A DNA stretch of 40,404 nucleotides. Origin: Candidatus Woesearchaeota archaeon. Lineage in GTDB: Archaea > Nanobdellota > Nanobdellia > Woesearchaeales > UBA583. A program made the position numbers and the translations under genes. How positions within the stretch are numbered: the first letter of the stretch is position 1; every line of letters begins with the position of its first letter. Below are positions 17,844-34,302 of this stretch, in pieces. Where the stretch lies: contig JBLKOJ010000006.1 in assembly GCA_047602745.1 (NCBI GenBank), positions 1-40,404 on the forward strand, given 5' to 3'. The notes under the pieces are model-generated. The model did not search any database, was not told where the DNA came from, and saw nothing but the letters and a program-made list of their open reading frames with translations.

Positions 17844-18542
17844 TTAATAACCTCCTATTTCAATAATTAGTCCATCTCTAGGTTCAACTCTAAATGCGAT
17901 TCTATCTATGTAAATTCCCTTTGGTCTCTTAAACCTTTTAATATTCAATATTCTTGTAGTCTCACCTGCAAAGTTTCCTAAAGTTATTTGGATGAACATA
18001 TCGGCCATATTTCTTAGAAGCATTAAAAATCTTTCATCAATTTGCGAGGGGTCTACAGTAAATATTACTGTTTTATTTAAATTATTGAGTTTTCTAAAAA
18101 AATTCATTATTGTGTAGTACGCTTCTTCTCCTGCATTTTTTTTAACTAATAAAAAAGATAAAGTATCAAAGATAATCACTTCTTTTTCAAATAACTTGGG
18201 AGTTTTTATTATTTTATCAATAAAGTCCTCTTCAAATTTTACTGTTCCAAGAAATGGAACCATAGTAATAAATAATAATTTTTGGTAAAGTAAATCGTTT
18301 TTAATTGAATAGTTTAAAGAGTTCATTTGCTTGATAAAATCTAGCGTATTAAGTTCAGTACTTATATATGTAACTTCAGTTTGGTTTCGAAGAAGTGAAT
18401 AAATAAGTCTTTGGCATAATATGCTTTTTCCTGCCCCATCAACGCCTTCTAGTAATATCAAACTGTTTTTAGGTATTCCGCCTCCAAAATATCTATTAAG
18501 CTCGTCTCTTTCAAGATCTATTAAGAAATAATCTTCTAACAT
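17844..18542 (-). CDS. arlH: Archaellum-associated ATP-binding protein ArlH (FlaH), KaiC-like
   Basis: RDELNRYFGGGIP, Walker A GVDGAGKS, YISTE, Walker B IIFDTLS, C-terminal IAFRVEP..GLIIEI. Confidence 0.9.
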   Translation of the reverse strand: MLEDYFLIDLERDELNRYFGGGIPKNSLILLEGVDGAGKSILCQRLIYSLLRNQTEVTYISTELNTLDFIKQMNSLNYSIKNDLLYQKLLFITMVPFLGTVKFEEDFIDKIIKTPKLFEKEVIIFDTLSFLLVKKNAGEEAYYTIMNFFRKLNNLNKTVIFTVDPSQIDERFLMLLRNMADMFIQITLGNFAGETTRILNIKRFKRPKGIYIDRIAFRVEPRDGLIIEIGGY

Positions 18543-18703: not shown

Positions 18704-21445
18704 ATGCAAAAATTAGTAAGTATTTTCAAACATAAAATTAATCTTAATACTGCATACTTGTTTGTTATTTGCGTAATTTTATTAAATTTATTTTTACATA
18801 ATACTTATTCTTCTGTTGTTTGTGAAATTGATTTTGCTCAAGTTGAATATACTGTCGTTTCTGGAGATTATATTTATGTTCTAGAGGAGACAGGTCAACG
18901 AGTAATTAAAAATAATCTCTCATCCCATCCTTTAAATATAATAATTTCTCAACCTACTAGCGAGTCTAATTGTCATACGCAAGAAGATATAGTACTAGTA
19001 TCATCGGGGACAGTGTCATTTCCAAAAGATTTTTCTATCCAAACTGTTGATGAAGATAATTATTTGGCAAATTGGATATTTGAAATTCCTGAAGATGAAG
19101 TTTTTACAAGTGATATCTCATTTAAATTTAGTAGCTATGAAGAACGTCAGGAAAGTGATGTATTATCTCTAAGGGTGGACACTCAAAATCCTTCAATTAA
19201 CTTTGAAAATGTTAAACGAAATAACGATTTGATAGACCTAGAAAATCCGGTTAGACAATCTCAATTAAAATCAGGCGATATAATCACAATTAAATTTAAT
19301 ATTTTAGATGATATCTCTGTAAATTCATTTCAAATTCGTTCTATACAAGGAGGGCAATTAGTATCAAATATATCCCAATATAACTCTATAGATAATATGG
19401 ACTTATTTGTTGAAATGATTCTAGAAGATTCTCCTTTAAATTTTGAAGTTGTAGCATTTGATGAATTTGGTTCATTTGAAACTCAACAATTTTCAATTCA
19501 TTTTGATTCATTTGACCCCGTGATTTCATCTCTTGATATTACTGCTTTAGAAGTAACTAATGATTTAAAACACATTATATCTGGTGAAATAACAATTCGA
19601 GATGATTTTGAAATTGTTAGTAATGCTGTGACTTTAGTTTCAAGACTTGAAGATTTAATTCTAAATTATGAAATTTACTCTTGTTCAACTCAGGATAGTG
19701 AAGATGTGTTAAAAACTACAACTTGCTTATTTAGGAGTCAACCAGTACATGTAGATTCTACATTTCAAACAAATTTTTCAGTGAGAGTTTTTGACATAGT
19801 TAGAAATGAAGTTGTTACAAATTTCACAAAGACTATTGAAATTGAGAACCAAGGTCCAGAAATTCATAATTTTGAACTATTAAATCCTATAAATAGGTCA
19901 AATATTTTATCTTCTTTTAACAATGAAAATTCAAAGATAATTTTGGAGTATTCAAATAATTTACCTTCTTTGTATATAGATTCAAATTCTAATAATCCTC
20001 AAAGAGTGAGAATTCAAACTAATTTTCAACCTTTTTCAAATATGCCTTCTCCTGATTGTGAACAAGTTGAGATTAGAACTAATAGGAAAAGGTGTGTTTG
20101 GGAAGTAGAACCTCAATATGTTGCGGGATTTCAAGAGTTCAATATCTCAGTTGTTCTTACTGATATAGCTGGGAATAGTAACACAGAAGAAATTTCAATA
20201 ACTGTTAACAACAAAGTTCCTAAAATTACTAATTTAAGAATTGTTGAGAGGGGGAATGAAAGAAACTCGATTTTAGAATCTTATGAAAGAGTTAGAATTG
20301 AATTTTTTGTAAGGGAAGTTGGTTTAGAAGATGAATTTGAGGTTAAAATTGATGGGTCAAATATTATTTTTAGAGAGTCGCCAGAGGCTATAAATTTTGT
20401 TTGTCAATATGTACAACAAAGTGAGCTGGGAGAAGATGGTCAAATTTGTTTCTCTGATGAGTTTGAATTAAATAGAGGATTTGAAGGGGACAGAACTGAA
20501 GATTTAAGAATAATAGTAACCAATTATGCAGGAAATAGGGATGTAGCTACAAAAGAAGTAAAAATTTTTAAAATTCATGAGGGAGAAGCAATAGATTACT
20601 TTGATTTGGATTTTGTGGAGCTTTTAACACCTCTTAACAGAAGAGTGGTTCAGCAACAAGGAATGGATGTATATCATTTTTTCAGATTAAAACCCAAAAA
20701 TAGTAATCAAGAGTTTAGAATTGTAAGTGTTCAATTAATGGGGATGGGCACTTCTTTAGAAGATAATAATGAAGATGTAAGATTAAGTTCTTTTGAACTT
20801 CAAAATGAAAATTCTCAAGGAATTGTGGCAGGAGATAATCGAGATTTTTTTTTAAAATCATTTATGCCTAGATTACTCTCAGCACATGAAATGCAAGGAA
20901 GAACACATTCGACAGTTGTTTTGTCAATCGTTAAAACTGATATTGATACTATATATAAAGACGAGAATGTCACAATTAGACTTCCAATTGAATTTTATGA
21001 TCTGCCTAGAGATTTAAATTCAAATATTGCACTGGCTCAAAAAATTTTAGGAGATATTGAAGGAGTGAATGAAAATATAAGAAAGGGAAAAAGTCTTTAT
21101 GATTATTATATGATGTATTATAATATTTGTAGTGTGTATAGTGGAATTTCAGGAGCGATACAATCACTCTCTCTTTCATGGAAAACTATTAGTTTAGCAC
21201 TTAGTTCAATGGCACCAGGAATGTTTGCATCTACTGATAATGCAGTTGGAAATACTGGTAAAGTAAATTCTATGCTTAGAAATATAAATAATGTAATGGG
21301 TAAGATATGTATGCTTGCATCTTGTGACTTTTCTCAAAATTTAATGGGTAATGCTCTTAATTCAATTTCAGGAGATTTAAGAGTGGGTGATTATTTAACA
21401 GGACAACGTTCTTTTTTAGGAAATATGTTGTGTAGGCCTGAGTAA
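18704..21445 (+). CDS. Large secreted protein with tandem Ig-like beta-sandwich repeats and a C-terminal Cys-containing helical region
   Basis: Signal peptide; repeat junctions DTQNPSI, DSFDPVI, ENQGPEI, NNKVPKI; TDIAGN/TNYAGN turns. Confidence 0.7.
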   Translation: MQKLVSIFKHKINLNTAYLFVICVILLNLFLHNTYSSVVCEIDFAQVEYTVVSGDYIYVLEETGQRVIKNNLSSHPLNIIISQPTSESNCHTQEDIVLVSSGTVSFPKDFSIQTVDEDNYLANWIFEIPEDEVFTSDISFKFSSYEERQESDVLSLRVDTQNPSINFENVKRNNDLIDLENPVRQSQLKSGDIITIKFNILDDISVNSFQIRSIQGGQLVSNISQYNSIDNMDLFVEMILEDSPLNFEVVAFDEFGSFETQQFSIHFDSFDPVISSLDITALEVTNDLKHIISGEITIRDDFEIVSNAVTLVSRLEDLILNYEIYSCSTQDSEDVLKTTTCLFRSQPVHVDSTFQTNFSVRVFDIVRNEVVTNFTKTIEIENQGPEIHNFELLNPINRSNILSSFNNENSKIILEYSNNLPSLYIDSNSNNPQRVRIQTNFQPFSNMPSPDCEQVEIRTNRKRCVWEVEPQYVAGFQEFNISVVLTDIAGNSNTEEISITVNNKVPKITNLRIVERGNERNSILESYERVRIEFFVREVGLEDEFEVKIDGSNIIFRESPEAINFVCQYVQQSELGEDGQICFSDEFELNRGFEGDRTEDLRIIVTNYAGNRDVATKEVKIFKIHEGEAIDYFDLDFVELLTPLNRRVVQQQGMDVYHFFRLKPKNSNQEFRIVSVQLMGMGTSLEDNNEDVRLSSFELQNENSQGIVAGDNRDFFLKSFMPRLLSAHEMQGRTHSTVVLSIVKTDIDTIYKDENVTIRLPIEFYDLPRDLNSNIALAQKILGDIEGVNENIRKGKSLYDYYMMYYNICSVYSGISGAIQSLSLSWKTISLALSSMAPGMFASTDNAVGNTGKVNSMLRNINNVMGKICMLASCDFSQNLMGNALNSISGDLRVGDYLTGQRSFLGNMLCRPE

Positions 21446-21465
21446 GTAAAGAGGAAAATATAAAA

Positions 21466-22167
21466 ATGATATATAAAAATATAATAACTATGAGTATGAA
21501 ATTTTTGAATTATTTTTTTATCTTGAGTTTGATTTTTTTGTCTTTTTCTTTTGTCTATGCAGATTTAGGTTCTCAGAATGTAGGTAATTCAATTACAGTC
21601 TCAGAATGTCAAGGATTGTTCGCAGCAGGATTTGACCCTCATGATAATTTAAAATCTTCAATTATGGGTCTTTGTTTATCGGGAATTATAGTTAACCTAA
21701 ATAAATTAGAACAAAATCAATGTGAGAAAATAATTTGTGAGTATAATGCTGCAAGACAAGGACTCTCTCCTATTGCCTGTGCTAAACAAAGTGCTTTTAA
21801 TACATGTATGATTAAAGGAGGGGGATTTGAAATCGTTGAGGGTATTTTAATTGGAGCTTTAAGACGTAATATCCGCCAAGTTTTAGAAGACCCTATTGCA
21901 TTTGGAATTTCTAGAATTCAAGATGCTTTAAAACAACAAGTAGCCACATGTCCAAGAGGTGTATGTACCTCACCAGGATCTAAGGCTGCTTCAATTGCTT
22001 TAGCAGTATTAGAACTTCCGCATGTGGTAGAAACTGTTGAACACTTAATTAAACAATTAAAGTCTTTAGGTTCGATTTTTGATGATAGTGCTTGTGAGCA
22101 ACTTGAGGATATCAAAAAAGAATTAGAACAATTAATTGAGGAGTATGAATTTCAATCTCAAAGGTAA
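21466..22167 (+). CDS. Secreted Cys-rich helical protein, homologous to an internal domain of the 1671-aa protein
   Basis: Signal peptide ending SFVYA; DPHDNLKSSIMGLCLSGIIVNLNKL; nine Cys. Confidence 0.7.
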   Translation: MIYKNIITMSMKFLNYFFILSLIFLSFSFVYADLGSQNVGNSITVSECQGLFAAGFDPHDNLKSSIMGLCLSGIIVNLNKLEQNQCEKIICEYNAARQGLSPIACAKQSAFNTCMIKGGGFEIVEGILIGALRRNIRQVLEDPIAFGISRIQDALKQQVATCPRGVCTSPGSKAASIALAVLELPHVVETVEHLIKQLKSLGSIFDDSACEQLEDIKKELEQLIEEYEFQSQR

Positions 22168-22178
22168 TTAAGTTAACA

Positions 22179-23033
22179 ATGGATATAAATATTATTAATG
22201 CTATTTCAAATGCTTCTTTAGTAGATATATTAAAACTTTTTATTGACGCTGATTATTTTGAAATTTTATTTCCATTTTTATTATTGTTTTCTGTGTATTT
22301 TCATGTTATTCAAAAATTTTTGGGTAAAAAAGGTTCAAAAATATTTTCAAAATCTGCAAGCACAATAATTGCTTTAATAGTTTCATTTTATTCTATAGCT
22401 TTTGAGTTTCCAAGTGGATATTCAATTGCCAATTTAATGATGATGTTATTTCCAAATATTTCAGTTATATCAATAGGAATTTTAAGTTTGTATGTAATAG
22501 GTTCAATATTGGGATTTGATTTCTTTAAAAATATGTTTAGAAAAGATTTAAGTGCTTATTTAATATTTTTTTTTGGAGCTTTTGGTTTAGGTTCTGTTAT
22601 ATTTTATGGAGGAATTGTACTTGGACTTTGGGATTTAGATCCTTTTAGTCAGGCTGATTGGATTTCTGTTATAATTATAATTGCTTTTTTGATATTAGGA
22701 GTTGTGTTTTTAATTATTGGTTGGTTTGCTTTAGCTTTATTACTTTTATATGTATCAATTTCTTTTATTTATAATGTTGGGAATGTAGGCATTACTACAC
22801 TTCTATTTGACCCATATTTATTTATTTTAGTCATTTTTATAGGTCTTGCTAGTTGGTTACTTAAAGATAAAACTTCAGAGAAAGAATTAGTGCAAAGCAT
22901 TGAAAATAGTAAATTAACTTTGAAAAATATTGAACAAAATTATGGAGGTTCTGCTCCTCAAAGGGGAGAAGATTTAATTTATGATATAGTTAGTCAAGGA
23001 AACGAATTTAGAAGGAAAAAATTGAGGAAATAA
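22179..23033 (+). CDS. Polytopic membrane protein (about 7 TM)
   Basis: EILFPFLLLFSVYFHVIQK first helix; multiple hydrophobic segments; 11 nt after the upstream stop. Confidence 0.7.
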   Translation: MDINIINAISNASLVDILKLFIDADYFEILFPFLLLFSVYFHVIQKFLGKKGSKIFSKSASTIIALIVSFYSIAFEFPSGYSIANLMMMLFPNISVISIGILSLYVIGSILGFDFFKNMFRKDLSAYLIFFFGAFGLGSVIFYGGIVLGLWDLDPFSQADWISVIIIIAFLILGVVFLIIGWFALALLLLYVSISFIYNVGNVGITTLLFDPYLFILVIFIGLASWLLKDKTSEKELVQSIENSKLTLKNIEQNYGGSAPQRGEDLIYDIVSQGNEFRRKKLRK

Positions 23034-23114
23034 TTTTTATTTATGAAATGAAGTTTTATTTTACTTTAAAGTTGTGTCATAATATTATATATACTTAGTT
23101 CTCATTATTTGAAT

Positions 23115-24743
23115 ATGAATCAAAAAATTGCTTATTTTAGTGCAGAGATAGGATTAAATGAATTAATTAAAACATACTCAGGGGGACTAGGTCTTCTTGC
23201 AGGAGATACGATTAAAGCTTTTGCAGATTTAGAAGTCCCAGCATGTGCGGTAACATTATTGTACAAACAAGGGTATTTCAAACAAAAAATAAATGAGGAG
23301 GGAATTCAAGTTGAACTTGCAGATACTTGGAGATATGAGGATATTTTGACTAAATTACCTAATACCATTAATGTTAATATTTATGGCGAAGATATTACAG
23401 TTAGTGTTTGGATGTACGAGTATGAAGGAGTAACGGGGCATAAAGTTCCTATCTTCTTCTTAGATACTAGTCTTGAAGATAATTCTTATTTTGCAAAATC
23501 ACTCACAGATCATCTATATGTTGGAGATAGAATTGCTCAAGAAATTGTACTAGGAATTGGAGGAGTAAGAATGCTTGAGAGTTTATATCTTCCTATTGAA
23601 TTATACCATATGAATGAGGGTCATAGTGCATTTTTAACACTTGAATTATATAAAAAATATGGTAAAGAGACAGGTAATTGGTGTAATTCTAATGTTATAG
23701 ATAGATGTGTATTTACAACACACACTCCAATTGCTGCTGGCCATGACCATTTTGAATATGAGAAAGTTGAGTATGCTCTTAGTGGAGAAAAAGATATTAT
23801 TCCTTTTCATTTACGTGAATTAGCGGGTGAAGAGATATTTAATACCACTCAACTTGCAATGACTTTATCAAAAGCAACTAATGCGGTTTCACAAAAGCAT
23901 GCTGAAGTGACCCGAGAAATGTTTCCAGGATTTGATGTTCTTGGAATCACTAACGGAGTTCACGCAACTACATGGGCTCATGAAAAAATGGCCCATTTAT
24001 TTGATATGTACTGTCAGGGTTGGAGAGAAGATTCTTCAAATTTAAAAAGTGCTTTTAAAATTCCATCTTCTCAATTATATTCAACTCATCAAGAAATAAA
24101 AAAGGAGTTAATTGATTTTACAAATGAACATTCTATAACACCAGTAAAACTTAAACAAGATGTTCTCACAATTGGATTTGCAAGAAGATTTATTGAGTAT
24201 AAAGATGCTGAGATGATATTTTATAATATGGGTAATTTGATTAAACTTGAAGGAAAAGTTCAATTTATTTTTGCAGGAAAGGCTCATATGCATGATATGC
24301 AAGGAAAGGAAATTATGCAAAGAATCATTAATCATGCAAAAGAATTAAAAGACCATATTTCAATTGCTTTTTTAGAAGATTATAATATAGCAGTTGCTAA
24401 AAAATTAATTCGTGGGTGTGATATGTGGCTAAATACTCCTGTCCCTCCCAATGAAGCTAGTGGTACAAGTGGTATGAAAGCTGCTATTAATGGGTGTATT
24501 CATGTATCCAGAATTGATGGATGGGCCATTGAGAGTTTTAAAATGAATGGGGGAGGATTTCCAATGTATCAATATCATGATTTTATTACAGCTTTAAGAT
24601 ATAAAATTATTCCGATGTATTATAGTGATAATAAAACTTCATGGGTGGAGGAAATGAAGTTAAGTATTGGAAACTCGGGGAGTTATTTTAATACTCATAG
24701 AATGGTTAAAGAGTATTTAGAAAAGTCATATGGGTGGAAGTAA
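23115..24743 (+). CDS. glgP: Alpha-glucan (glycogen/maltodextrin) phosphorylase, short form
   Basis: YSGGLGLLAGD, HMNEGH, FTTHTP, ITNGVH, GFARRF..YK, PLP-lysine motif EASGTSGMKAAING. Confidence 0.95.
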   Translation: MNQKIAYFSAEIGLNELIKTYSGGLGLLAGDTIKAFADLEVPACAVTLLYKQGYFKQKINEEGIQVELADTWRYEDILTKLPNTINVNIYGEDITVSVWMYEYEGVTGHKVPIFFLDTSLEDNSYFAKSLTDHLYVGDRIAQEIVLGIGGVRMLESLYLPIELYHMNEGHSAFLTLELYKKYGKETGNWCNSNVIDRCVFTTHTPIAAGHDHFEYEKVEYALSGEKDIIPFHLRELAGEEIFNTTQLAMTLSKATNAVSQKHAEVTREMFPGFDVLGITNGVHATTWAHEKMAHLFDMYCQGWREDSSNLKSAFKIPSSQLYSTHQEIKKELIDFTNEHSITPVKLKQDVLTIGFARRFIEYKDAEMIFYNMGNLIKLEGKVQFIFAGKAHMHDMQGKEIMQRIINHAKELKDHISIAFLEDYNIAVAKKLIRGCDMWLNTPVPPNEASGTSGMKAAINGCIHVSRIDGWAIESFKMNGGGFPMYQYHDFITALRYKIIPMYYSDNKTSWVEEMKLSIGNSGSYFNTHRMVKEYLEKSYGWK

Positions 24744-24819
24744 GTAATAGTAAGAGATAGTTAAAGTATTGAAAATTTCAAACACAAATATTTTTAAATA
24801 AAAATCAACAAAATATTAT

Positions 24820-26367
24820 ATGAGTGACTCTCAAATAAAATCTTTAATTTATAGACTTCATCCTCTTGCTCGAAAAACACTTGTGTATTGTATTGAATTT
24901 AAGGGGGACAAAATTTCATCTCCTCCACAAGAGATTTTAGATGGTGCATATTTACTTGAACAGGATTCTTTAATTTCAATTGAAATTTTAAAAGAAGAGT
25001 ATGTTGAATTAGATACATTAGGACTTAAATTTTTAGAAGAAGAAATGCCGGAATATCAAGTATTAAAAGCATTAAATGAAACTTCTAAAACTCAAAGAGA
25101 ACTTGGAATTTCACAAGAAGTACTTACTTCAGCTTTAGGAGGATTAAAAAAACGTAAATATATTGAAATTTCAAAAAATGTTCAAAACGAACTTGTAATT
25201 ACTCCAACAAAAGAAGCACAAAATTATCTTAATATTTATTCAAATCCTCTTTTATTATTCAAAGAGAAAAAACAGGTTAATAGTTTAAATATTCAAGAGC
25301 AAAAAGTATATCATGAGCTTCAAAAAAAAAAAGGATTTTTAAGTTTAAAAAGAGAGAGTACGGTCCAACTTTCACTTACTAGCTTAGGAAAAGAAGTAGC
25401 TAAAGAATTAGTATCTACGTTTAAAGATTTAGATTTAGTTGATATTGTCACTTCAGAGATACTTAAAAAGAAAGATTTTAAAAAAATAGAATTTAGACAT
25501 TATGATATATCAATTCCAACCTCAATTAAAAATATTGGAAGATTACATCCTATGCATGAGGCAAATGATATTTTAACTCAAGTATTTGTCGAATTAGGTT
25601 TTAAAGAAATGGAAGGACCAATTGTGGAGAGTGAGTTTTGGTGTTTTGATACACTTTGGATTCCTCAAGATCATCCTGCAAGAGAAGACCAAGACACATT
25701 TTACATTGGAGATGAGGCAGATGTTGATAAGGACTTACTGGAAAAAGTAAAAGAGATGCATGAGAGAGGGATTGATGAAACACATACACAAGAAGGAGAT
25801 TTTAAGAAGAGTGTCACAAGAAATACGATACTTAGAACCCACTCTACAGCTACTACGTTTAGAACATTATATGATTTAGGTAAAAAAGTACAACAAGGAG
25901 AGAATATTGATGGGAAATATTTTTATGTGGCTCATAATTTTAGAAATGAAGCAGTTGATGCAACACATTTAGCGGAGTTTTTTCAAGTTGAAGGGATTTT
26001 AATTCAAGATGATTTATCTCTAGCAGGACTTATTGGATTTATGAAAGAGTTTTATGGAAAATTTGGACTTCATAATTTAAAATTTAAACCAACATTTAAT
26101 CCATATACAGAACCTAGTATGGAAATTCACTATTTTGATGATACAATGAATAAGTGGTATTCAATTGGAAATTCAGGAATTTTTAGACCTGAGTCGTTAA
26201 AAGCATTTGGCCTTGAAAATAAAAGAATATATGGATTTGGACTTGGAGCGAGTAGAATTGCTGCATTACTAACAGGAAGAAATAATATGAGAGAAATTAC
26301 AGGTGCCACATGTGATCTAACTTGGATTGAAAATCATCAACGATTAAGTAGAAATATTTTAAGATAG
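24820..26367 (+). CDS. pheS: Phenylalanine--tRNA ligase alpha subunit, archaeal long form
   Basis: GRLHP, FDTLWIPQDHPARE.QDTFY, LRTHST, FRNEAVDATHLAEFFQVEG, FNPYTEPS, GNSGIFRPE. Confidence 0.96.
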   Translation: MSDSQIKSLIYRLHPLARKTLVYCIEFKGDKISSPPQEILDGAYLLEQDSLISIEILKEEYVELDTLGLKFLEEEMPEYQVLKALNETSKTQRELGISQEVLTSALGGLKKRKYIEISKNVQNELVITPTKEAQNYLNIYSNPLLLFKEKKQVNSLNIQEQKVYHELQKKKGFLSLKRESTVQLSLTSLGKEVAKELVSTFKDLDLVDIVTSEILKKKDFKKIEFRHYDISIPTSIKNIGRLHPMHEANDILTQVFVELGFKEMEGPIVESEFWCFDTLWIPQDHPAREDQDTFYIGDEADVDKDLLEKVKEMHERGIDETHTQEGDFKKSVTRNTILRTHSTATTFRTLYDLGKKVQQGENIDGKYFYVAHNFRNEAVDATHLAEFFQVEGILIQDDLSLAGLIGFMKEFYGKFGLHNLKFKPTFNPYTEPSMEIHYFDDTMNKWYSIGNSGIFRPESLKAFGLENKRIYGFGLGASRIAALLTGRNNMREITGATCDLTWIENHQRLSRNILR

Positions 26368-26447
26368 ATTGTTATTCTAAAATTTATTTGAGATTTTCAT
26401 ATATTCTTAATAAAATTTAGATTTTTTTAATTATGCTAAAATTTCTA

Positions 26448-27992
26448 TTAAGATTTTTCTTTAATTGCGTGTAAGAGTTCTTCAAAATAATATTCACTAT
26501 TTTTAATTCTCCTAAGAATGCCATCAAATCCTTCATTTCCTGCTGTGTAAATTAGGATAGTTCCTTCTGAGAATACTCTTTGTAAATATAATGGTCTATA
26601 AAGTGATATATATTTAATATTTGAGATATAAATCTCACTTCTTGCAATATTGAAAACTCCTTTTTGAATAATAATTTTATTATAATATAATTCATAATTA
26701 AAGTTGTTCCATGCAATGAATCTATATATTAAAAATAAGATATATAAAAAAATATATACTGAACTTCCAATAACAATTATTGTATTAAATTCTTGAAGAT
26801 AAGGAATATCAATTAATAAGTATAATATAAATATTTTTATGAAAAATGAGATTGGTATAATTGGTTGTACAATATATGAAAGACCTGGTTTTAATTCAAA
26901 TAATGGTTTATTAGTATCTAGTTTCATATTAATTTCACTAATTTTTTCTTTAGAGAGTCTATTTTTGGGATCTTTAACAAGAGATGATATTGTGGGGATT
27001 ATAAGGGAGTTATTATCTAAAAACCAAAATTGGGGGTCTTTATTTCCACCGGTGTAAATAACACAACTACTTACTTTAAACAATGTGTAGGAGATGAGAT
27101 TTTTGTACTCAGAACTATTGGTTATTTTTCTATATGGAGTTAATTTTTCTGAATTTTTTAGAATATAAGAGTATTCAATATGGGCCGACTCTTCATATAG
27201 TTTGAAATTAGTTTTTTTAAGTTTAAGAAATTCTATAAACTTGCCACTTATTATTAAGAAAAATATCAATACTAAAGATAATGGAATTAAGCTCATTGTA
27301 GGTGAAAATGTATGCCCTATGACAATACTACTAATAATTAATAATAATGTTGCAATCAAATTTAAAAAAATTGAAACTTGAATAGGTTTTGTGTTTGGCT
27401 TTTCTAGAATTTGAATAGTATTATATGAAATATTCATTCGACTACAAATTTCATTAAATACTTCATCTCCTTTTTTAATATGTTTAAATATTGGTAAGAT
27501 TGGTTGCCTATTATTACTTTGTCCAGTATTTTGTACTCCTACTCCTCCAAATATATTAAATTCAACGCTATGCAAATTAAATATTTTTTGAATAATGGTC
27601 TGACTTCTCTCAAGACTAGTTATCTGGTCTATACGATAAACTTTAGAAGTTTTTGAAATAAATTCTTTAGTGATAATTAGCTCGTTTTTATTAGTTATAG
27701 TATATTTTGTCACATATAAATCAATTATTGAAGCAATTACTCCAACAATACTAATAAAAATGATGTATCCTAACACAGAAGCAGTTGCTGTTAAAATTGT
27801 GTAATTTTCAAAAATAGTTGACAATATTAAAGCTATTAGACATACTAAAATAAAACTAATTGTCGCAATACCAATATTAAAAAATAATGGTCTTAAACTT
27901 GGTTTTAAAATAATGTTCTTCTTTTCATTTTTAGAATCTTCATTTATTTGGGAGATATTATTAATATGGTAGTCATTATTATTCATGCCCAT
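26448..27992 (-). CDS. Membrane protein with three bacterial PH (bPH_2, YdbS/YdbT-like) units
   Basis: Three repeats of KP + 2 TM + Y.I....I...G + I..I + G.I.I.TAG; ATG at 27992 follows the upstream stop. Confidence 0.75.
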   Translation of the reverse strand: MGMNNNDYHINNISQINEDSKNEKKNIILKPSLRPLFFNIGIATISFILVCLIALILSTIFENYTILTATASVLGYIIFISIVGVIASIIDLYVTKYTITNKNELIITKEFISKTSKVYRIDQITSLERSQTIIQKIFNLHSVEFNIFGGVGVQNTGQSNNRQPILPIFKHIKKGDEVFNEICSRMNISYNTIQILEKPNTKPIQVSIFLNLIATLLLIISSIVIGHTFSPTMSLIPLSLVLIFFLIISGKFIEFLKLKKTNFKLYEESAHIEYSYILKNSEKLTPYRKITNSSEYKNLISYTLFKVSSCVIYTGGNKDPQFWFLDNNSLIIPTISSLVKDPKNRLSKEKISEINMKLDTNKPLFELKPGLSYIVQPIIPISFFIKIFILYLLIDIPYLQEFNTIIVIGSSVYIFLYILFLIYRFIAWNNFNYELYYNKIIIQKGVFNIARSEIYISNIKYISLYRPLYLQRVFSEGTILIYTAGNEGFDGILRRIKNSEYYFEELLHAIKEKS

Positions 27993-27994
27993 AT

Positions 27995-29086
27995 TCAATT
28001 TTCACCCGCCTCTTGAAGAATTTCTAAAATCCTTTTATTTATATCTTCTCCATTTTTTACATACTTAATTGAAATTACAGAGTTATGTGATCCTGCAGTT
28101 TCAATATTAATTGTGTATACATTAAAAAACCTCTCAATAATTCCTTGATAAGAATTTGAATTAGTAATTCTTTCATAAGGTATTGTATGCTTAATTATAT
28201 TAAAAAAACCATCATAATATTCCACTTTGTTAGGGAAAAAATAGTAAGTTATTTGAGAGTATCTCTTTTTTAGAAGCACATAAATTCCAATCATTAGACC
28301 AATACTAACGCCTATTATTGTAATCCCTACTCCTACAACAAGTAAGGGTCTTTGAGAGGTGATTAAAAGACTAATAAAACTAATTAAGGCAAATGTTCCA
28401 AAAGTAAGTATAAATATTATTGCTCCAACTAGAAATTGAAAAAAATTTATTAATATTGCACTTTTGATATCAGGTTTAATTATGAGAAGTTTTGTTTGTA
28501 AATCTTGAGATTTCACATCTGCTTGAATATCTGTCTCTATTTTTTTAGAAGAAGTTATATCATTATGATATCTTGTTTCTTTTTTATGATGTTGTATAAA
28601 AGAGTTTAGTATTTCATATTGTTTTTGATAGGAGTTAATATAGTTAAACGAAATATCAACACTTGAACTTCCACTAGTATAAATATTTAGAGTTCCAGTT
28701 TTAAAGTTTTTATCAAGTATAAAACTTTCAAAAGAATCAATGTTAGTAATTTGGTATGTTGGTATAATTATTTTTTCAATATTAAAAAAATTATTAGTAT
28801 ATGTAACTACATCTTTTGAAATCGTATAAGTGGTATTTTTTAAACGTATAATATCAAATATAAGTTTAGAAATGATAAGTAGTAATAATGTTACGTATAT
28901 TGATATTGTAATTAAGATTTGAAATTTATTATTTAAACCAATTAAAAGGGTTGTGAAAAAAACTGAAATAATGAGAACTAAGATAATTATAATTGGCACA
29001 ATAATGCTAGAAAAAGCTCCTCTTAACACATTTGGTTTTAAAACTATGGTTTGTTCTCCCATTATTCCATTAGTATTTGAGTTCAT
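27995..29086 (-). CDS. Membrane protein with two bacterial PH (bPH_2) units
   Basis: IPTYQITNID..GTLNIYTSGS and IPYERITNSNSYQGIIERFFNVYTINIETAGS, each preceded by LKP/IKP + TM hairpin. Confidence 0.8.
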   Translation of the reverse strand: MNSNTNGIMGEQTIVLKPNVLRGAFSSIIVPIIIILVLIISVFFTTLLIGLNNKFQILITISIYVTLLLLIISKLIFDIIRLKNTTYTISKDVVTYTNNFFNIEKIIIPTYQITNIDSFESFILDKNFKTGTLNIYTSGSSSVDISFNYINSYQKQYEILNSFIQHHKKETRYHNDITSSKKIETDIQADVKSQDLQTKLLIIKPDIKSAILINFFQFLVGAIIFILTFGTFALISFISLLITSQRPLLVVGVGITIIGVSIGLMIGIYVLLKKRYSQITYYFFPNKVEYYDGFFNIIKHTIPYERITNSNSYQGIIERFFNVYTINIETAGSHNSVISIKYVKNGEDINKRILEILQEAGEN

Positions 29087-29286
29087 TTTATTTAGTATAG
29101 TAATTCAAATTACTGATAATTATATTTATTAATAATTTTTAACTTGGCTGTTATTTAAATATATGTTTTATATTACTAATTAATTAATTAAACTTTTATT
29201 TAATCTTGTGTATATTTTTAATGTATTTTTATTTTTACTAATAAATTAAACTATATTTTTTTAAATAGAATTAATCTTAATTTAAT

Positions 29287-32200
29287 ATGAATATATTAGA
29301 ATTGAATTCTTCTCTTAAAAATTTAATTGTAATTAAACTATTAAATATTGTTTTATTATTTTTTATTGTATTTTTATCTTTTTCTTATGCTCTTAATTAT
29401 CCAAATTTTAATTTAAATACTAACCCTGTATTTGATGAAGAAGGAAATATACTCATTATAAGTGGTCAGACATGTTATAATTGTGAAATATCATTAGTAT
29501 TAAATTCCCAAGTAGTTGAACAAAAAAAAATTCAATCTCCTGTAAAGATAATCAATTGGAACGAAATTGGAGATACAATTAGTTTATTTCCAAACCAACA
29601 TTTTGTAATAAATTACTCTCGTAATGAGTTAATAGATGGTGAGTCTTCGTATCAAGTAGATGTATTTGAACAAGATAATTTTAGGTCTTTTCAAGTAAAT
29701 CATACTTCTAGTGAATTTAGAATGTCTTCAGTTGATTTTGATTTGTCAAGAATTGTTTTAGAATATAATGAAGAGCAGGAATCAAAAAGTGTTTCAATTG
29801 AAAATACACTCATAGATTTTAGTTTTACAAGTATTTCTAGAGATGATTTAATTTCAGGAGAAAATACGATTGCAGTTATTGTTAAAAAATCAGATGATTT
29901 CGATGGAGGAAATGAAGAACCTTTAGAGGAAGGATTTGTGTATGATTTTTCAAAATATAATATTCAATTTATAATGGATACAAATAACAAAAATGCAATA
30001 AATCTAAATGGGGGGTACTTGGCTGGAAGAGTTGTGGGAGTTGATAATTATGATGATGTTGGATTTTCGTATTTAGTTAATGGCCCTGGTGAAATTATTA
30101 CAAATACGGGCTTAATGCGAAGTTTTCAAGTTAATCAAACAACGGGTGAGTTTAATTTTTCTCTTAGGGCTAATGAGTTTAGAGAAGGAGAAAATACTAT
30201 TGATTTAATTGCACACCGAGCAGAGAATAAAGGAACTTTTGTAGGTTTTAACAGAGTCGATATAATTAGGGATACAAGACCTCCTACTTTGGAAATTAAT
30301 TCAATTAAATTGTATGATGGAGGAGAAGTAATTACCCAATTGAGGCCTCAGGAAATAGGGAGGGAGATTTTTACGGGTTATCAAACAGTTGAGTTAAATA
30401 TATCTGCTGATGCTGAAATTATTACTTGGGAATATGACTCAAATCCTCAAGAATTGGTAGGAGTAGATGGACAATTTCCTCCTTTAAGATTTAATGCAAA
30501 AAGAGGAGATACTTTAGTAAGAGATATTTCAAATGAATTAGTAAAAGAGAAAAGTATTGAGGAGATAGCTCAAGAATTAGAAGTAAATAGAGAAACTGTT
30601 GAACTTGTAAATGAAGCATATCAAAAATTGATAGAAGAAGGAAATTCTCGAAAGAGTTTGTGGTATAGAGAGATTGCAAATCAATTTGGAATTGGATATG
30701 ATTTGATTTTAAGGGCTCAAGATGTAGCTGGTAATGAAATTTTAAGGTCATTTAGAGTTGTATTTAATGATGAAAATCCGGAACTAGTGTTAGATGAAAT
30801 GAGACCAAACTCGATATTTAAAGATAAAGAATCGTTTAATGGTGTTGAGAGAATTGAAGGTAGGACTAATCAACCAAATGTTGATATTAGTATTATTGCA
30901 ATTGGGCCTGATGATTTTGTACAAACAGATGCTGGAAATAGAGTGAGGGTTACGTGTCAAAATATATATGAATATTATAGAAGAGGAATTTGGAGAAATT
31001 ATGAAGATACTTCAACATTAGATGAGCATTTATCTTCTGGAACAGTGGGTGGTAGTTTTTCTCTTCAATTCTCAGACTTGCTAGAATTTATTAGAGGTTC
31101 TCTTGAGTTTAGAAGTGATAGTCAAGGTAGGTTTGGAACTTCAAATATACTTAAAGCTATCGTAGGAGGGGACTATATTACATTTAGAACGGGTAATAAT
31201 CCAAATCAGAGAACTGCACAGCATAGAAATACTCTTTGTATATTTATGAAAAATAGTTTTGGGAGAACAAATATGCAAGAGTTTAATGTGAACTATTTGA
31301 CAGGTAATTATGATTGGAAAGTTGATGGTATATCATTTAATAAAAATTCAATTAATCCCTATGAAATTGAAAGTTCTGTGAGTAGAACAGGGGGGGGGTA
31401 TAGAACTTCAGTAGTAATTGAGATGACATACCAAGGTCAATTTGGAGAAACTGGAGAGTTAGATATTAGAAGAGTTGATGTGAGAAAAAGAGGAACTGAA
31501 CCTAGAAATGTAAGAGTTATCAATTCAGAAGTTGTATATTTTTATCAAATGGGAAGATTGAATTTATATGTTCCGCTTGAATTTACACGAAGAGGTATTC
31601 CTGTTCAAGAATATCCTAACACTGAAAGACTAGTACTTGAAATCATTCCAAGAGCAGTTGTTCAAGGGTATGAAATTGATAATAGAAATCCTGAGTTTGT
31701 AGAAATTGAGATTTTTTATGATACCAATTTACTCACTAATTGGTTAACTCCAAGTATGATTGATAGAGGTATTAAATTTTTAAGTTCTACTCTTCAAATA
31801 ACAGGGACTCTTAGAGATACAACTAGGAATTTAGTTCCCGTTGGAGTTTTAAGTTGTACAGGAGCAAGATTTTGGTTTACTTTACAATCAGCAGGTTTAG
31901 ATTCTAATGATCCTAAAGATAAAGAGAGATTGAACCAACTAAAAGAGCGACTGTTTTACGTTTGTGATAGAACATTTTGCTCAGCAACCCCTCACGAATG
32001 TACTCCTGATGATAGTAGTGGGAGATTGCTAGGACTTAAAAAAGACAAAAGTAAAAAAATTTTGGGGGTAGAAATTCCCCAGGATTTAGCGGAGTTAGAT
32101 AGAGTTTCTAGCGCACAAAGTGGACAAATTCTTCAACGATTTAATTATTTAAATGATGGGCCAGAGTGTGTGGTTCCAGGAAGTAGTGGGATGAGGGGGA

Positions 32201-34302
32201 GATTGATGAATTGGGGGGTTACAAGATTTGAAGAAGCGGGGAGTCTTTATTACACTCCTATTGAATCACAAACAGATTTAAGAACTAGATTTGTATGTGT
32301 TCCATATACATACTCAGAGAAATTAGACGAAGAATTAGAAAAATGTAGTGAGCATAAAACAGCAAGTGAGAGAAGTAACTGCAGAAATGCAGCTTATTCT
32401 AATTCTAATTTAATTGAAGGAATTGATATTCAAACAATAAGTAATGCATGCTATTCTGAAGAAGCTCCAAGAATGGATCAAACAAGATGTTTTGGACAAA
32501 AAGGAATGGACCCTAGTGATACAATTATAGATTCAGTTATGTGTGGATGTATTCCTGAGACGTATCAACATTTAAATAAATTGTATCGAATTCAAGAAAA
32601 TATTATTGATTGTTTAGAGGACGTTAAAACAGCTACTGTTGAAGGAACGTATTGTGAGAGATTAATTAGTGTTTCTTTGTGCGATGCAGTCACTGGAGCG
32701 GTATTTAGATTTATGGAGCATAGAGCTGCAAATTCTCCTGCACAGCGTGAATATGATGAAGCCGGAGGTGATGGGGCGTTATCTTCAGTACTAAGTAGTA
32801 TGCAACAAACTCAACAAATAATGGATAATAGGTACGCAGGACAGAGTTTTTATGACTCTAGGAGTGGGTTTAATACTCGGATGATTGTAAACAATTTGTG
32901 TTTATTTGCAATTAACAGAGATTTTTCAATGTTTGAACAAGATATAATAGGAGATTTAGATAGAAGTGTTCAAGTAAGACCTGAGTATGCAAGAACTATT
33001 CCTCAAGTGAGATTTGAATCATATAATCCAATTAGTAATGATATGACTATTTCTTATAGATTTACACATAATGGGATTTCAGGAGGAAGTCCTGTAAGAT
33101 TTACGTATGAATTGGTTTGTGACGCGGATAGAGAAAATGGTGAATACTGTCCTGATGGAGTTACACGTGCAATTGATATTAATCCTTCTATATATAGACC
33201 TCTATTAAGAAATATTAGGGCGGGAGGACAAGCTCAAGAATTAATTGAAGTTAGAGATACAAGTGCTCGATTTGTATTTAATGTTTTAAGAACAACTGTA
33301 GAATATTCTATTGATGAACAGCAAAAAACAAGAGTTCATGAAGAAATTATTAGAAGAGGTCCAGGAGATAACATTGGTTCAGGAATTTTCTCATTTTGTA
33401 ATTTTAAAGAAGGGTCTATGGAAGTAGCAGGAGTTGGGATTACGTGTAGTTCTCAGTTTGGTGCTATGAGTGATATTTCTTATTTTGAAATTTTACAAAA
33501 TTCAAGAGTGGTGCCTAAAGGAGATGATGGAAGAATAATATTTAAACCTGGTGAAAGTGTGGGAGTGAATATTAGATATTCTGCAAGAGGAGACACTTCA
33601 AATGCTCATAGGGGAAGATTATGGTATAAATCAAGTTGTGGAAATGAATTTGGTTCGCATCAGTTAGATCAATCTTTAATAACTTCACAAAATGGTAATT
33701 TTTATGTAGAACTATTTACAATTCCAACTTTAGATTCAGTTCAACAAACTAATAATAATGGGGGTAATGAGCAGGAGCAGCAAACTCCACAACTAAGAGA
33801 AGGGGGTTGTAGATTAGAATTGAGAATGACAGGAAGTGATATTATGATAACTCCAGACAACTTCCAAAAAGATATTTTAGAGGAGAGCGGAACTCAAGTC
33901 GACCCTCAAACAACTAGAAGAGTAAATCAAGTATTTACTACAAACTTTGAAATTAGAAGCAAAAGAGGAGATGAAAGACCAATTGAGTTTATAGTTCCAA
34001 GAGAAGGTTCAACAATTTGTGTAAATGAGCAAGGTCAACCGACTCGGAGTTCTGTTATTCAATTTGCTGCATTAAATTTAACTAATGAGAGGGTGTATTC
34101 AATTGAAATGCATTTAAATAGGTATCAACAAGAGCCAATAAATTTTAGTATTAACAACTTAGAGAGTTTTGAAAATTTATATGTTTCAAACGAATTTAAA
34201 GGACAATTTACAGGAGTAGAGTATCCGACTCCTGCAACGTTGAGAATTAGATTTGATGGTTCAACTATTGCATCAAGAGAAGTGGAGTTAAGAATTTGTT
34301 AA
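29287..34302 (+). CDS. Giant (1671 aa) secreted Ig-repeat and Cys-rich protein
   Basis: Signal peptide FFIVFLSFSYA; DTRPPTL, QDVAGNE, NDENPEL Ig-like motifs; dense Cys pairs in the second half; DPSDTIIDSVMCGC domain. Confidence 0.75.
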   Translation: MNILELNSSLKNLIVIKLLNIVLLFFIVFLSFSYALNYPNFNLNTNPVFDEEGNILIISGQTCYNCEISLVLNSQVVEQKKIQSPVKIINWNEIGDTISLFPNQHFVINYSRNELIDGESSYQVDVFEQDNFRSFQVNHTSSEFRMSSVDFDLSRIVLEYNEEQESKSVSIENTLIDFSFTSISRDDLISGENTIAVIVKKSDDFDGGNEEPLEEGFVYDFSKYNIQFIMDTNNKNAINLNGGYLAGRVVGVDNYDDVGFSYLVNGPGEIITNTGLMRSFQVNQTTGEFNFSLRANEFREGENTIDLIAHRAENKGTFVGFNRVDIIRDTRPPTLEINSIKLYDGGEVITQLRPQEIGREIFTGYQTVELNISADAEIITWEYDSNPQELVGVDGQFPPLRFNAKRGDTLVRDISNELVKEKSIEEIAQELEVNRETVELVNEAYQKLIEEGNSRKSLWYREIANQFGIGYDLILRAQDVAGNEILRSFRVVFNDENPELVLDEMRPNSIFKDKESFNGVERIEGRTNQPNVDISIIAIGPDDFVQTDAGNRVRVTCQNIYEYYRRGIWRNYEDTSTLDEHLSSGTVGGSFSLQFSDLLEFIRGSLEFRSDSQGRFGTSNILKAIVGGDYITFRTGNNPNQRTAQHRNTLCIFMKNSFGRTNMQEFNVNYLTGNYDWKVDGISFNKNSINPYEIESSVSRTGGGYRTSVVIEMTYQGQFGETGELDIRRVDVRKRGTEPRNVRVINSEVVYFYQMGRLNLYVPLEFTRRGIPVQEYPNTERLVLEIIPRAVVQGYEIDNRNPEFVEIEIFYDTNLLTNWLTPSMIDRGIKFLSSTLQITGTLRDTTRNLVPVGVLSCTGARFWFTLQSAGLDSNDPKDKERLNQLKERLFYVCDRTFCSATPHECTPDDSSGRLLGLKKDKSKKILGVEIPQDLAELDRVSSAQSGQILQRFNYLNDGPECVVPGSSGMRGRLMNWGVTRFEEAGSLYYTPIESQTDLRTRFVCVPYTYSEKLDEELEKCSEHKTASERSNCRNAAYSNSNLIEGIDIQTISNACYSEEAPRMDQTRCFGQKGMDPSDTIIDSVMCGCIPETYQHLNKLYRIQENIIDCLEDVKTATVEGTYCERLISVSLCDAVTGAVFRFMEHRAANSPAQREYDEAGGDGALSSVLSSMQQTQQIMDNRYAGQSFYDSRSGFNTRMIVNNLCLFAINRDFSMFEQDIIGDLDRSVQVRPEYARTIPQVRFESYNPISNDMTISYRFTHNGISGGSPVRFTYELVCDADRENGEYCPDGVTRAIDINPSIYRPLLRNIRAGGQAQELIEVRDTSARFVFNVLRTTVEYSIDEQQKTRVHEEIIRRGPGDNIGSGIFSFCNFKEGSMEVAGVGITCSSQFGAMSDISYFEILQNSRVVPKGDDGRIIFKPGESVGVNIRYSARGDTSNAHRGRLWYKSSCGNEFGSHQLDQSLITSQNGNFYVELFTIPTLDSVQQTNNNGGNEQEQQTPQLREGGCRLELRMTGSDIMITPDNFQKDILEESGTQVDPQTTRRVNQVFTTNFEIRSKRGDERPIEFIVPREGSTICVNEQGQPTRSSVIQFAALNLTNERVYSIEMHLNRYQQEPINFSINNLESFENLYVSNEFKGQFTGVEYPTPATLRIRFDGSTIASREVELRIC

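Follow-up and report, generated by a model that had tools for sequence, protein, structure and literature searches.

A Cys-Rich Stalk-and-Head Protein of a Woesearchaeal Archaeon, Split into Two Apparently Exported Halves, and Its Giant Second-Module Paralogue

Introduction

Is a pair of adjacent genes for Cys-rich, apparently exported proteins a broken copy of the giant protein encoded further along the same strand, or something else? This question is raised by a 40,404-nucleotide stretch of DNA (hereafter the window) from a Candidatus Woesearchaeota archaeon, contig JBLKOJ010000006.1 of assembly GCA_047602745.1. A sequence-only reading of the window had described an exported protein family present both as a 1671-amino-acid (aa) giant and as a collinear paralogue divided between a 913-aa and a 233-aa protein. 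The four open reading frames (ORFs) on which it drew are all present, at nucleotides (nt) 18704–21445 (913 aa), 21466–22167 (233 aa), 22179–23033 (284 aa) and 29287–34302 (1671 aa). We followed up that reading by profile searches, phylogeny, comparison of gene neighborhoods and structure prediction.

The window is contig C23 of a 1.09-Mb genome, here called G000, in 56 contigs and 90.6% complete. Its GC content is approximately 25–35%, and among its genes are archaeal ribosomal, thermosome, proteasome and archaellum genes. The proteins under study have relatives in the databases with the labels Nanoarchaeota or Candidatus Nanoarchaeia archaeon. Other genomes are given G-numbers below, and fetched loci of relatives L-numbers. 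DPANN cells are described as episymbiotic, with pilus-mediated attachment reported, in the sections of PMC7906910 consulted.

Results

The two small proteins match one protein of about 1050 aa

A profile of the 233-aa protein matched 94 of 151 genomes of the same order, almost always within open frames of approximately 1000–1500 aa. At 19 of 20 fetched loci from this order the domain lay inside one protein of 970–1548 aa, mostly at its C-terminal end (mid-protein in L023 and L027); the sole exception was a genome of the same genus, G040, with proteins of 897 and 224 aa. An iterated hidden Markov model (HMM) built from the 913-aa protein reached the N-terminal parts of the same 20 relatives, collinearly and stopping just before the domain. 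Its first distant match had an E-value of 2.4e-7, and in five rounds it recruited only proteins of this family, which has no name and which we call B, and never reached the giants, with some drift through immunoglobulin (Ig)-like repeats possible. The B family is defined here by three profiles (A3, A6 and A8).

Over its final 174 residues, the 913-aa protein aligns with 16 relatives through FYNxPLGE, a lone Cys in a helix and FCxFxxC. They follow the order of head motifs typical of the B family (PExExV..FYNxPLGE, lone Cys in helix, FCxFxxC), and C70, C130 and C135 of the alignment are invariant or nearly so. At the other end, the 913-aa protein has the N-terminal trait of B proteins, an Ig-like array with AxDxxGN turns behind a Sec-type signal. 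By sequence comparison, the unsplit counterpart of the 913- and 233-aa proteins is this single protein of about 1050 aa, B, found in most genomes of the order.

The family is large. A domain-profile search of 1.84 billion representatives returned 1813 matches with E ≤ 1e-3, including 1117 with E ≤ 1e-10 and 424 with E ≤ 1e-30. Among the best 150 of the 1813, 96 are full-length (950–1260 aa; median 1052 aa, 28.5 Cys), a hydrophobic N-terminus is present in 86 of those 96, and all but one of the short entries look like fragments. A broader profile found a match in 187 of 251 sampled genomes of the phylum, all 251 of which had passed an 80% completeness filter. By hand count of the listed rows, 152 of the 187 belong to the same order (own genome included) and 35 to other orders of the class, with weaker scores; no other class is represented among the listed matches. 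Three unpublished genomes enter these tallies, G121 in the count of 94 from 151 and G325 and G326 in that of 187 from 251.

The sequence-only reading could name no known family for these proteins, and none emerged from our searches of Pfam, NCBIfam and PDB sequences or from the fold comparisons (Foldseek, VIA-align) described below. Pfam and NCBIfam gave nothing above cut-off for the four window proteins or for 36 cluster proteins of relatives. The gathering cut-offs of the Ig-like families Big_3_3, Big_13 and DUF4625 were not reached: the 913-aa protein scored 15.3 bits on DUF4625 (cut-off 27), and relatives scored 17–24 bits on Big_3_3 (cut-off 27). A sequence search of the PDB with the B-family profile yielded weak Ig matches only, such as 2yn3 (E 2.8e-4), and the giant profile had zero matches there. 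Entry 2yn3, which we take to be SiiE, bears the title "putative inner membrane protein".

The gene is cut in the middle of a predicted helical head

AlphaFold2 modelled the unsplit B protein of L015 (1026 aa; 70-sequence alignment) with a mean predicted local distance difference test (pLDDT) score of 84. The model has an N-terminal helix, then beta-sandwich domains from residue 25 to approximately 700, about seven Ig-like domains in all, and from there only helices. Because this last part, the head, also folded when modelled alone (337 aa; pLDDT 84.1, predicted template modelling score 0.76), it is predicted to be one compact, all-helical, disulfide-rich unit of approximately 300 residues. In most relatives, then, B consists of a Sec-type signal, about seven Ig-like domains as a stalk, and a compact all-alpha head of approximately 300 residues that has about 11 conserved Cys; there is no membrane anchor. 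The earlier description of exported, Cys-rich proteins full of Ig repeats is supported. Signal peptides of the 913-aa protein, the 233-aa protein, the giant and their relatives were judged throughout by eye and hydropathy only.

The stretch of lowest confidence inside the head (mean 70, module residues 141–150) is where the window's cut maps. The models place the cut in a variable, low-confidence linker in mid-head, so that the 913-aa protein would keep the stalk and the first helices and the 233-aa protein the remaining helices. In the window, the N-terminal piece (18704..21445, + strand), identified from the iterated HMM, the C-terminal alignment and its orthologs, has a signal-like N-terminus, an Ig-like repeat stalk at residues ~38–756 and the first half of the head at residues ~757–913 (nt 20972–21442, +), which holds an FYD motif, the lone Cys in a helix and a CxxxxC. 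A spacer of 20 nt (21446..21465, +), with a purine-rich stretch of the GAGG type ahead of the second ATG, leads to the C-terminal piece (21466..22167, +); from their coordinates, the two ORFs occupy different reading frames. The second piece has a signal-like peptide at residues 1–32 (by eye), nine invariant Cys and, at residues ~50–211 (nt 21613–22098, +), the second half of the head.

Each half is conserved as a gene of its own

The 913-aa protein has nine orthologs of 902–930 aa and the 233-aa protein eight homologues of 248–261 aa, with identities of 43–83%. All nine Cys of the small half are invariant, and a hydrophobic, signal-like N-terminal segment is seen by eye in the 233-aa protein and all eight homologues. 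This peptide, approximately 32 residues long in the second ORF of the window, has no equivalent in the unsplit proteins. In one metagenome-assembled genome the two halves carry adjacent locus tags (LAT82_02320 and LAT82_02325), and the two-gene form is also found in loci L029, L034 and L035. The last two, the only loci found by a related-locus search with a narrow profile, share one gene order: thermosome, two small genes and arlH, and then divergently the 913-, 233- and 284-aa genes. Every sampled word of nt 20800–23000 is present in seven DNA runs from two studies; these are lake-water metagenomes, some of which may come from the source sample itself. One lake-water metatranscriptome run contains 13% of the sampled words.

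An artefact (frameshift, nonsense error, pseudogene or misassembly) can resemble a split gene, and one relative may be a case of this. In G015 (L046:1310–4464), the B gene is read as overlapping ORFs of 890 and 204 aa, the second without a signal peptide, and it looks like a frameshift or sequencing error. The window's second ORF, however, opens with a signal-like peptide foreign to unsplit proteins. The two-gene form also recurs in the 9 + 8 relatives and in three further loci, with invariant Cys, and the junction is present in all seven DNA runs. We give an artefact next to no credence. The sequence-only reading had called the fission real and credited the 233-aa half with a signal peptide of its own. 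Both points agree with the conservation described here: the halves persist as separate genes in relatives, and the second has gained a signal peptide.

A split also occurs in G124, from another family of the order (1060 + 238 aa). Its small half has its own signal peptide, and its large half ends in a proline-rich tail, which is a different break point from the window's. A tree of 140 columns joins the G040 split to the window's clade as its sister (support 94/93), with G124 outside.

Two further observations concern the shape of these proteins. The tail of the 913-aa protein, GDYLTGQRSFLGNMxC (nt 21389–21445), ends 0–3 residues past the Cys and is kept in all 10 orthologs. Placement by MAFFT and a likeness by eye had suggested a duplicated first helix of the second half, an idea we dropped when a domain HMM made from unsplit proteins gave no signal at the tail in 10 of 10 orthologs. 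In G070 (L050:3714–4685), a "stalkless" member of 323 aa has a signal peptide, 19 Cys and only the core, and lies between an A-family gene (see below) and the gene for a 773-aa secreted protein.

The giant shares a Cys-rich core with the pair and belongs to a second module

By eye, the sequence-only reading had aligned the 233-aa protein with an internal segment of the giant (~32506–32690). BLASTP found the same place, matching residues 55–125 of the 233-aa protein to residues 1073–1144 of the giant (nt 32503–32718) with 28.9 bits, an E-value of 5e-4 and 19 of 72 positions identical. Taken alone this match is borderline, and a direct hhalign comparison of the 233-aa family (profile A1) with the giant family (profile A2) was weak as well (probability 17%, E 1.4e-3, 35 columns). 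The shared segment becomes significant because intermediate relatives link the 233-aa family to the giants. At iteration 2, against a database of about 660 sequences, an HMM that combined the 233-aa family with 20 relatives and contained no giant matched the window's giant at residues 1063–1145 (E 1.8e-10), along with eight of nine other giant-family proteins. Likewise, a 15-sequence profile of unsplit relatives aligned with the giants by hhalign with a probability of 87.6% (E 3.5e-6, 72 columns).

With these intermediates the shared Cys-rich segment proves real. Its consensus in the B family is approximately SLxxSxxxLCxPGIxxNLxKxRQIxCxYxxC...C...C, and four Cys are invariant across all 31 aligned sequences of the core. 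Within G000, the A3 HMM finds the domain in two proteins only, the 233-aa protein (E 2.2e-46) and the giant (E 1.6e-25). In the giant, this helical core lies at residues 1063–1145 (32473..32721, +) and contains the four Cys present without exception in B, split B, the giant and the protein B' introduced next.

In relatives, B belongs to a recurring gene cluster with the order A (~700 aa), B, C (500–950 aa, secreted), D (six transmembrane segments, 250–300 aa), A' and B'. The last of these, B', is the second large Cys-rich protein of the cluster and matches the domain profile weakly; full-length copies in five extended loci have 1345, 1346, 1680, 1828 and 2182 aa. The window's giant (29287..34302, +; signal-like N-terminus) resembles this protein far beyond the core. 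A six-sequence B' profile aligned with the giant family with a probability of 99.4% (E 9e-22) over 770 columns, corresponding to giant residues 290–1275 (nt 30154–33111, +). A tree built on 81 columns of the core places the giant with three B' domains (support 97/93) and all split forms in the B clade. A long match to the B' profile outside the core, which is what marks a B' protein, was found for the giant; the 233-aa and 913-aa proteins fall outside the B' family. B' and B are in turn related, with hhalign probabilities of 98% for the N-terminal part and 92% over 555 columns.

These alignments bear on the proposal that the giant is the unsplit form and that the 913- and 233-aa proteins are a collinear paralogue of it broken in two. 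The core of about 80 residues common to the 233-aa protein and the giant speaks for the proposal, as do the equal order of motifs seen by eye (FYD, lone Cys, CxxxxC, core) and the collinearity of B and B' at profile level. However, single proteins of about 1050 aa match both halves in most genomes of the order, and the giant aligns and groups with B' whereas the split forms are all in the B clade. Directly compared, the 913-aa protein and the giant are not above chance, either by BLASTP (best E 0.33) or with a profile of the 913-aa C-terminal region against the giants (probability 0.4%). The giant also extends about 520 residues past the core, a part without equivalent in the 913- and 233-aa proteins. 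We consider this proposal highly improbable.

The evidence instead identifies the giant as G000's copy of the module-2 paralogue B', with a collinear plan and a core of about 80 residues with four invariant Cys in common with B. Since the giant aligns and groups with B' and the split pair with B, the window contains both module proteins of an ancestral two-module cluster, B in split form and B' as the giant. What the earlier reading saw as a match between the 913-aa protein and the upstream architecture of the giant stands in part: the DxAGN turns, FYD, lone Cys and CxxxxC that it listed are conserved signatures of the B family. Collinearity of the pair with the giant likewise stands only by way of the giant–B' and B'–B alignments. 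The nearness of the pair and the giant in the window is not conserved, because in a relative with visible locus tags they lie approximately 500 genes apart (LAT82_02320 versus LAT82_04955). We also considered whether the giant might be a fusion of a pilin-type A' with B'. This was dropped, as B' alone has 1345–2182 aa and is matched by the giant starting in the giant's N-terminal region.

Pilin-type proteins flank B in relatives

A class III signal consists of a short, charged N-terminus, a cleavage site of the form [KR][GA] and then a hydrophobic helix, with Q at +1 in EppA-type substrates. A-family proteins have an N-terminus of pilin type, typically K-R/K-G-Q-I/V-T-x-F with a hydrophobic helix after it. 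The motif [KR][GAS]Q[IVLFA][TSA]x[FYW] was found in 29 of 33 A-family proteins. It was found in none of 24 B-family proteins (the 913-aa protein, the 233-aa protein and the giant included), six B' proteins, seven C proteins or 219 other ORFs of the loci. In 15 of 20 loci the gene immediately upstream of B is from the A family. The A family is represented in G000 by four genes, all on other contigs and including those at C22:14868–17012 and C2:57538–59598; of the C, D and B'-type families the genome has only the giant. Genes for a T2SSE ATPase, for T2SSF platform proteins and, on C24, for an A24 prepilin peptidase are also found away from the window. In the loci examined, the cluster itself never has an assembly ATPase or platform gene next to it.

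Directly 3' of the 233-aa gene is the gene for a 284-aa polytopic membrane protein (22179..23033, +) with six hydrophobic segments and no Cys. It is kept beside the split pair in L034 (E 1.7e-142) and L035 (E 1.5e-116) and occupies the position of the cluster's D. A relationship to the six-transmembrane protein of the cluster was not detected, with hhalign probabilities of 0.3% and 1.8% against the six-transmembrane families. An extra protein with six to seven transmembrane segments follows B' in two of five extended loci.

Fold searches match the stalk generically and leave the head without a match

With the whole model as query, Foldseek returned only generic tandem Ig proteins (titin, LILRB3, DSCAM, EA1, Sap, GhpA and alpha-2-macroglobulins) at TM-scores of approximately 0.1–0.2. 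The head alone had no match in the PDB below E 0.4 by Foldseek. VIA-align, searched widely, gave a best Z of 7.4, all helical hairpins, a level it calls common for helical models. The best E-value against a viral structure library was 0.27. In the ESM Atlas, the 233-aa protein and the head of an unsplit relative scored 0.77 and 0.82 at best, which is chance level.

In organisms thought to tap the cytoplasm of a host, an all-helical module carried outside the cell on a stalk could be membrane-active, that is, a fusogen or alpha-helical pore-former that breaches or fuses the host membrane. A crude hydropathy scan does show a hydrophobic stretch inside the head region of several unsplit proteins (e.g., residues 750–1030), and the pore-former YaxA appears in the Foldseek list. 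The YaxA match is at noise level, though (E 0.64, TM-score 0.11), and no fusogen or pore-former is found among the VIA-align rows or in the viral library at the values just given. In none of these fold searches did a class II fusogen (fusexin/HAP2) or a pore-former of the ClyA/Yax type score meaningfully. Moreover, the 8–11 disulfide-forming Cys argue for a rigid rather than a refolding structure. A membrane-active head is very doubtful on this evidence.

The main rival is that B and B' are envelope lattice proteins of the S-layer kind, their head being a lattice or anchoring contact. They are Sec-type secreted proteins with long Ig-like arrays and no anchor, found in 187 of 251 sampled genomes. 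Three S-layer proteins, EA1, Sap and SbsB, are in the whole-model Foldseek list with E-values of 1e-12 to 1e-14, and at sequence level the Deinococcus HPI surface-layer protein is matched weakly (E 0.048). That list is nevertheless led by titin, LILRB3 and DSCAM, as expected of generic tandem Ig folds, and no S-layer family or anchoring domain was matched in Pfam or NCBIfam. The genes are found in clusters of several genes, those for pilin-signal proteins among them, and have been duplicated in modules; 64 of the 251 genomes, all past the completeness filter, have no match. Archaeal S-layer proteins usually have few Cys, whereas B carries approximately 28. On balance we judge a lattice role unlikely.

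The halves were also modelled as a complex, each with its own alignment. The median score was 0.33, compared with 0.00 for the best of three controls, and was graded "weak support". In calibration, 116 of 157 solved complexes and 2 of 215 mismatched pairs scored high enough to earn this mark; those that passed with a score no higher than 0.60 comprised just 18 of the 157 solved complexes and both of the mismatches. Runs agreed in at least 23% of contacts, with a partner pLDDT of at least 53. Pairing of the halves was already likely because they form one domain in relatives, and the complex prediction adds slightly to it.

Neighboring genes and other loci

Divergent from the 913-aa gene is arlH, encoding the KaiC-like ATPase of the archaellum (17844..18542, −; NF052589 ArlH, 229.7 bits, cut-off 215). 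This arrangement is kept in L034 and L035 and was not seen beside unsplit B genes. Other archaellum genes are scattered: an ArlC/D/E-like fusion (10017–11255, −) lies 7 kb from arlH, and the sole T2SSE and T2SSF genes are at C5:43052–45808. The record that holds L035, CAZULG010000015.1, is labelled "uncultured Methanosarcinales archaeon". Its eight ORFs in the 7.8 kb retrieved match the window in order and sequence, so the record has probably been misbinned or given the wrong taxonomy.

Between the split-pair operon and the giant, two adjacent genes (26448–29086, −) encode polytopic membrane proteins of 516 and 363 aa with bPH_2 domains. Beyond the giant are a 737-aa fusion (34350–36563, −) of phosphoglycerate kinase (residues 11–395) with a pfkB-family sugar kinase (442–718), and a 560-aa archaeal helicase of the Hel308 type (36653–38335, −). 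Helicase_C begins at residue 65 of the latter, and the first RecA-like domain seems to be missing or separately encoded.

G000 has further surface-protein loci at C22:12618–26896, C35:8507–10145, C49:11151–13017 and C2:62688–68407. One of the proteins, of 1975 aa and with 42 Cys, is encoded 4 kb away from an A-family gene; the loci also include tandem near-identical pairs: 261-aa short A-family proteins, 276-aa proteins with 18 Cys, and 271- and 619-aa membrane-anchored proteins. In G022, a gene for an STT3/PMT_2-like protein of the oligosaccharyltransferase type (L030:10796–12772) directly follows the six-transmembrane gene and hints at glycosylation of the secreted proteins.

Discussion

Taken together, the results are probably best explained as follows: the 913- and 233-aa proteins are the two halves of B, the giant is B', and the separately exported halves rebuild a head for surface contact. 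Each half would leave the cell on its own by the Sec route, undergo oxidative folding outside and join the other to restore the head. The Ig stalk would hold the head away from the cell, and partner proteins would keep the complex on it. The likeliest partners are the ~700-aa proteins with pilin-type (class III-like) signals that flank B in relatives and are encoded elsewhere in G000. The head may serve cell-surface contact, most plausibly attachment to a host cell. From their architecture and the DPANN lifestyle, we infer that proteins of the B type stand on the cell surface as a stalk with a head and serve to contact another cell, a role in keeping with the pilus-mediated attachment of episymbiotic DPANN cells reported in PMC7906910.

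Several points weigh against this explanation. No pilin-type gene lies beside the split pair in this lineage, and the link to pilin-type partners comes from other genomes. The pilin-type motif was defined after the sequences had been viewed, and no Pfam family, class III signal families included, matched the seven A-family proteins scanned. The giant HMM detects just two of the five full-length B' proteins. The trees have only 81–140 columns and many unresolved forks, and an AU (approximately unbiased) test leaves a single clade of split forms unrejected (p 0.39), so one or two origins of the split are possible. By the tool's own account, complex predictions graded "weak support" are wrong more than half the time when the pairing was not already likely. 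Finally, the head fold has no functional analogue, and "adhesion" is suggested by architecture and the DPANN lifestyle.

A bolder proposal is that the head is a new extracellular fold and the business end of the host-contact apparatus of Woesearchaeota-type DPANN archaea. Since evolution has divided it, at least one time and perhaps two, between proteins secreted on their own, it would be a two-part module that assembles outside the cell, possibly through an intermolecular disulfide. Such a bond might join the extra invariant Cys48 of the 233-aa protein to the conserved Cys close to the C-terminus of the 913-aa protein. As a whole, this proposal is unlikely.

Three known systems invite comparison. 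The archaeal type IV filament loci with adhesin-like accessory proteins, in the parts of PMC13705601 that describe them, likewise set a large secreted Ig-fold protein beside proteins with pilin-type signals, and G000, as a genome with the B family, also has class III signal peptidase, ATPase and platform genes. The B cluster differs in that its pilin-signal proteins, at ~700 aa, are far larger than structural pilins, that its disulfide-rich helical head has no counterpart, and that no assembly ATPase or platform gene adjoins it in the examined loci. The same 2026 census, as far as those parts go, describes type IV filament systems as widespread in most archaeal phyla except DPANN and Asgard archaea (PMC13705601).

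B also resembles the giant bacterial Ig-like (BIg) repeat adhesins such as Salmonella SiiE in its tandem beta-sandwich stalk with Dx(A)GN-type turns and in its likeness, always below the gathering cut-off, to Big_3_3, DUF4625 and Big_13. Unlike them, it is archaeal, secreted by Sec, rich in Cys and tipped by an unmatched helical head. Two-component S-layers such as Sap and EA1 of Bacillus anthracis are secreted multi-Ig proteins that have no anchor of their own and need a partner. Their Foldseek E-values with B of 1e-12 to 1e-14 come with TM-scores of just 0.09–0.13, and B differs by having no S-layer homology (SLH) or other anchoring domain, by its operon with pilin-signal proteins and by its Cys-rich helical head. 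SlaA/SlaB of Sulfolobales, also a two-component S-layer, was not matched by any search.

We found no description of the B family or its cluster in the literature, including the portions of PMC11537232, PMC13705601 and PMC7906910 consulted; supplementary files may still list it. Three findings are new: the gene is cut within the head and its second half has gained a signal peptide, the giant is a B' protein, and the head has a fold for which no match emerged.

The molecular basis by which DPANN archaea grip other cells is largely unknown, and the B family is large, with 1813 matching representatives and a match in 187 of 251 genomes. It is invisible to Pfam and NCBIfam, and its confidently predicted head has no significant match among solved or viral structures. 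Reading the giant and the split pair as two different module proteins of one ancestral cluster, B' and B, rather than as a whole protein and its broken copy, corrects the logic of annotation for G000. The natural split also marks a domain boundary. It offers a small test system, a secreted half of approximately 200 residues and a partner region of approximately 160, which would be easier to handle than a protein of 1000–1700 residues and could be tested for assembly, disulfide pattern and binding.

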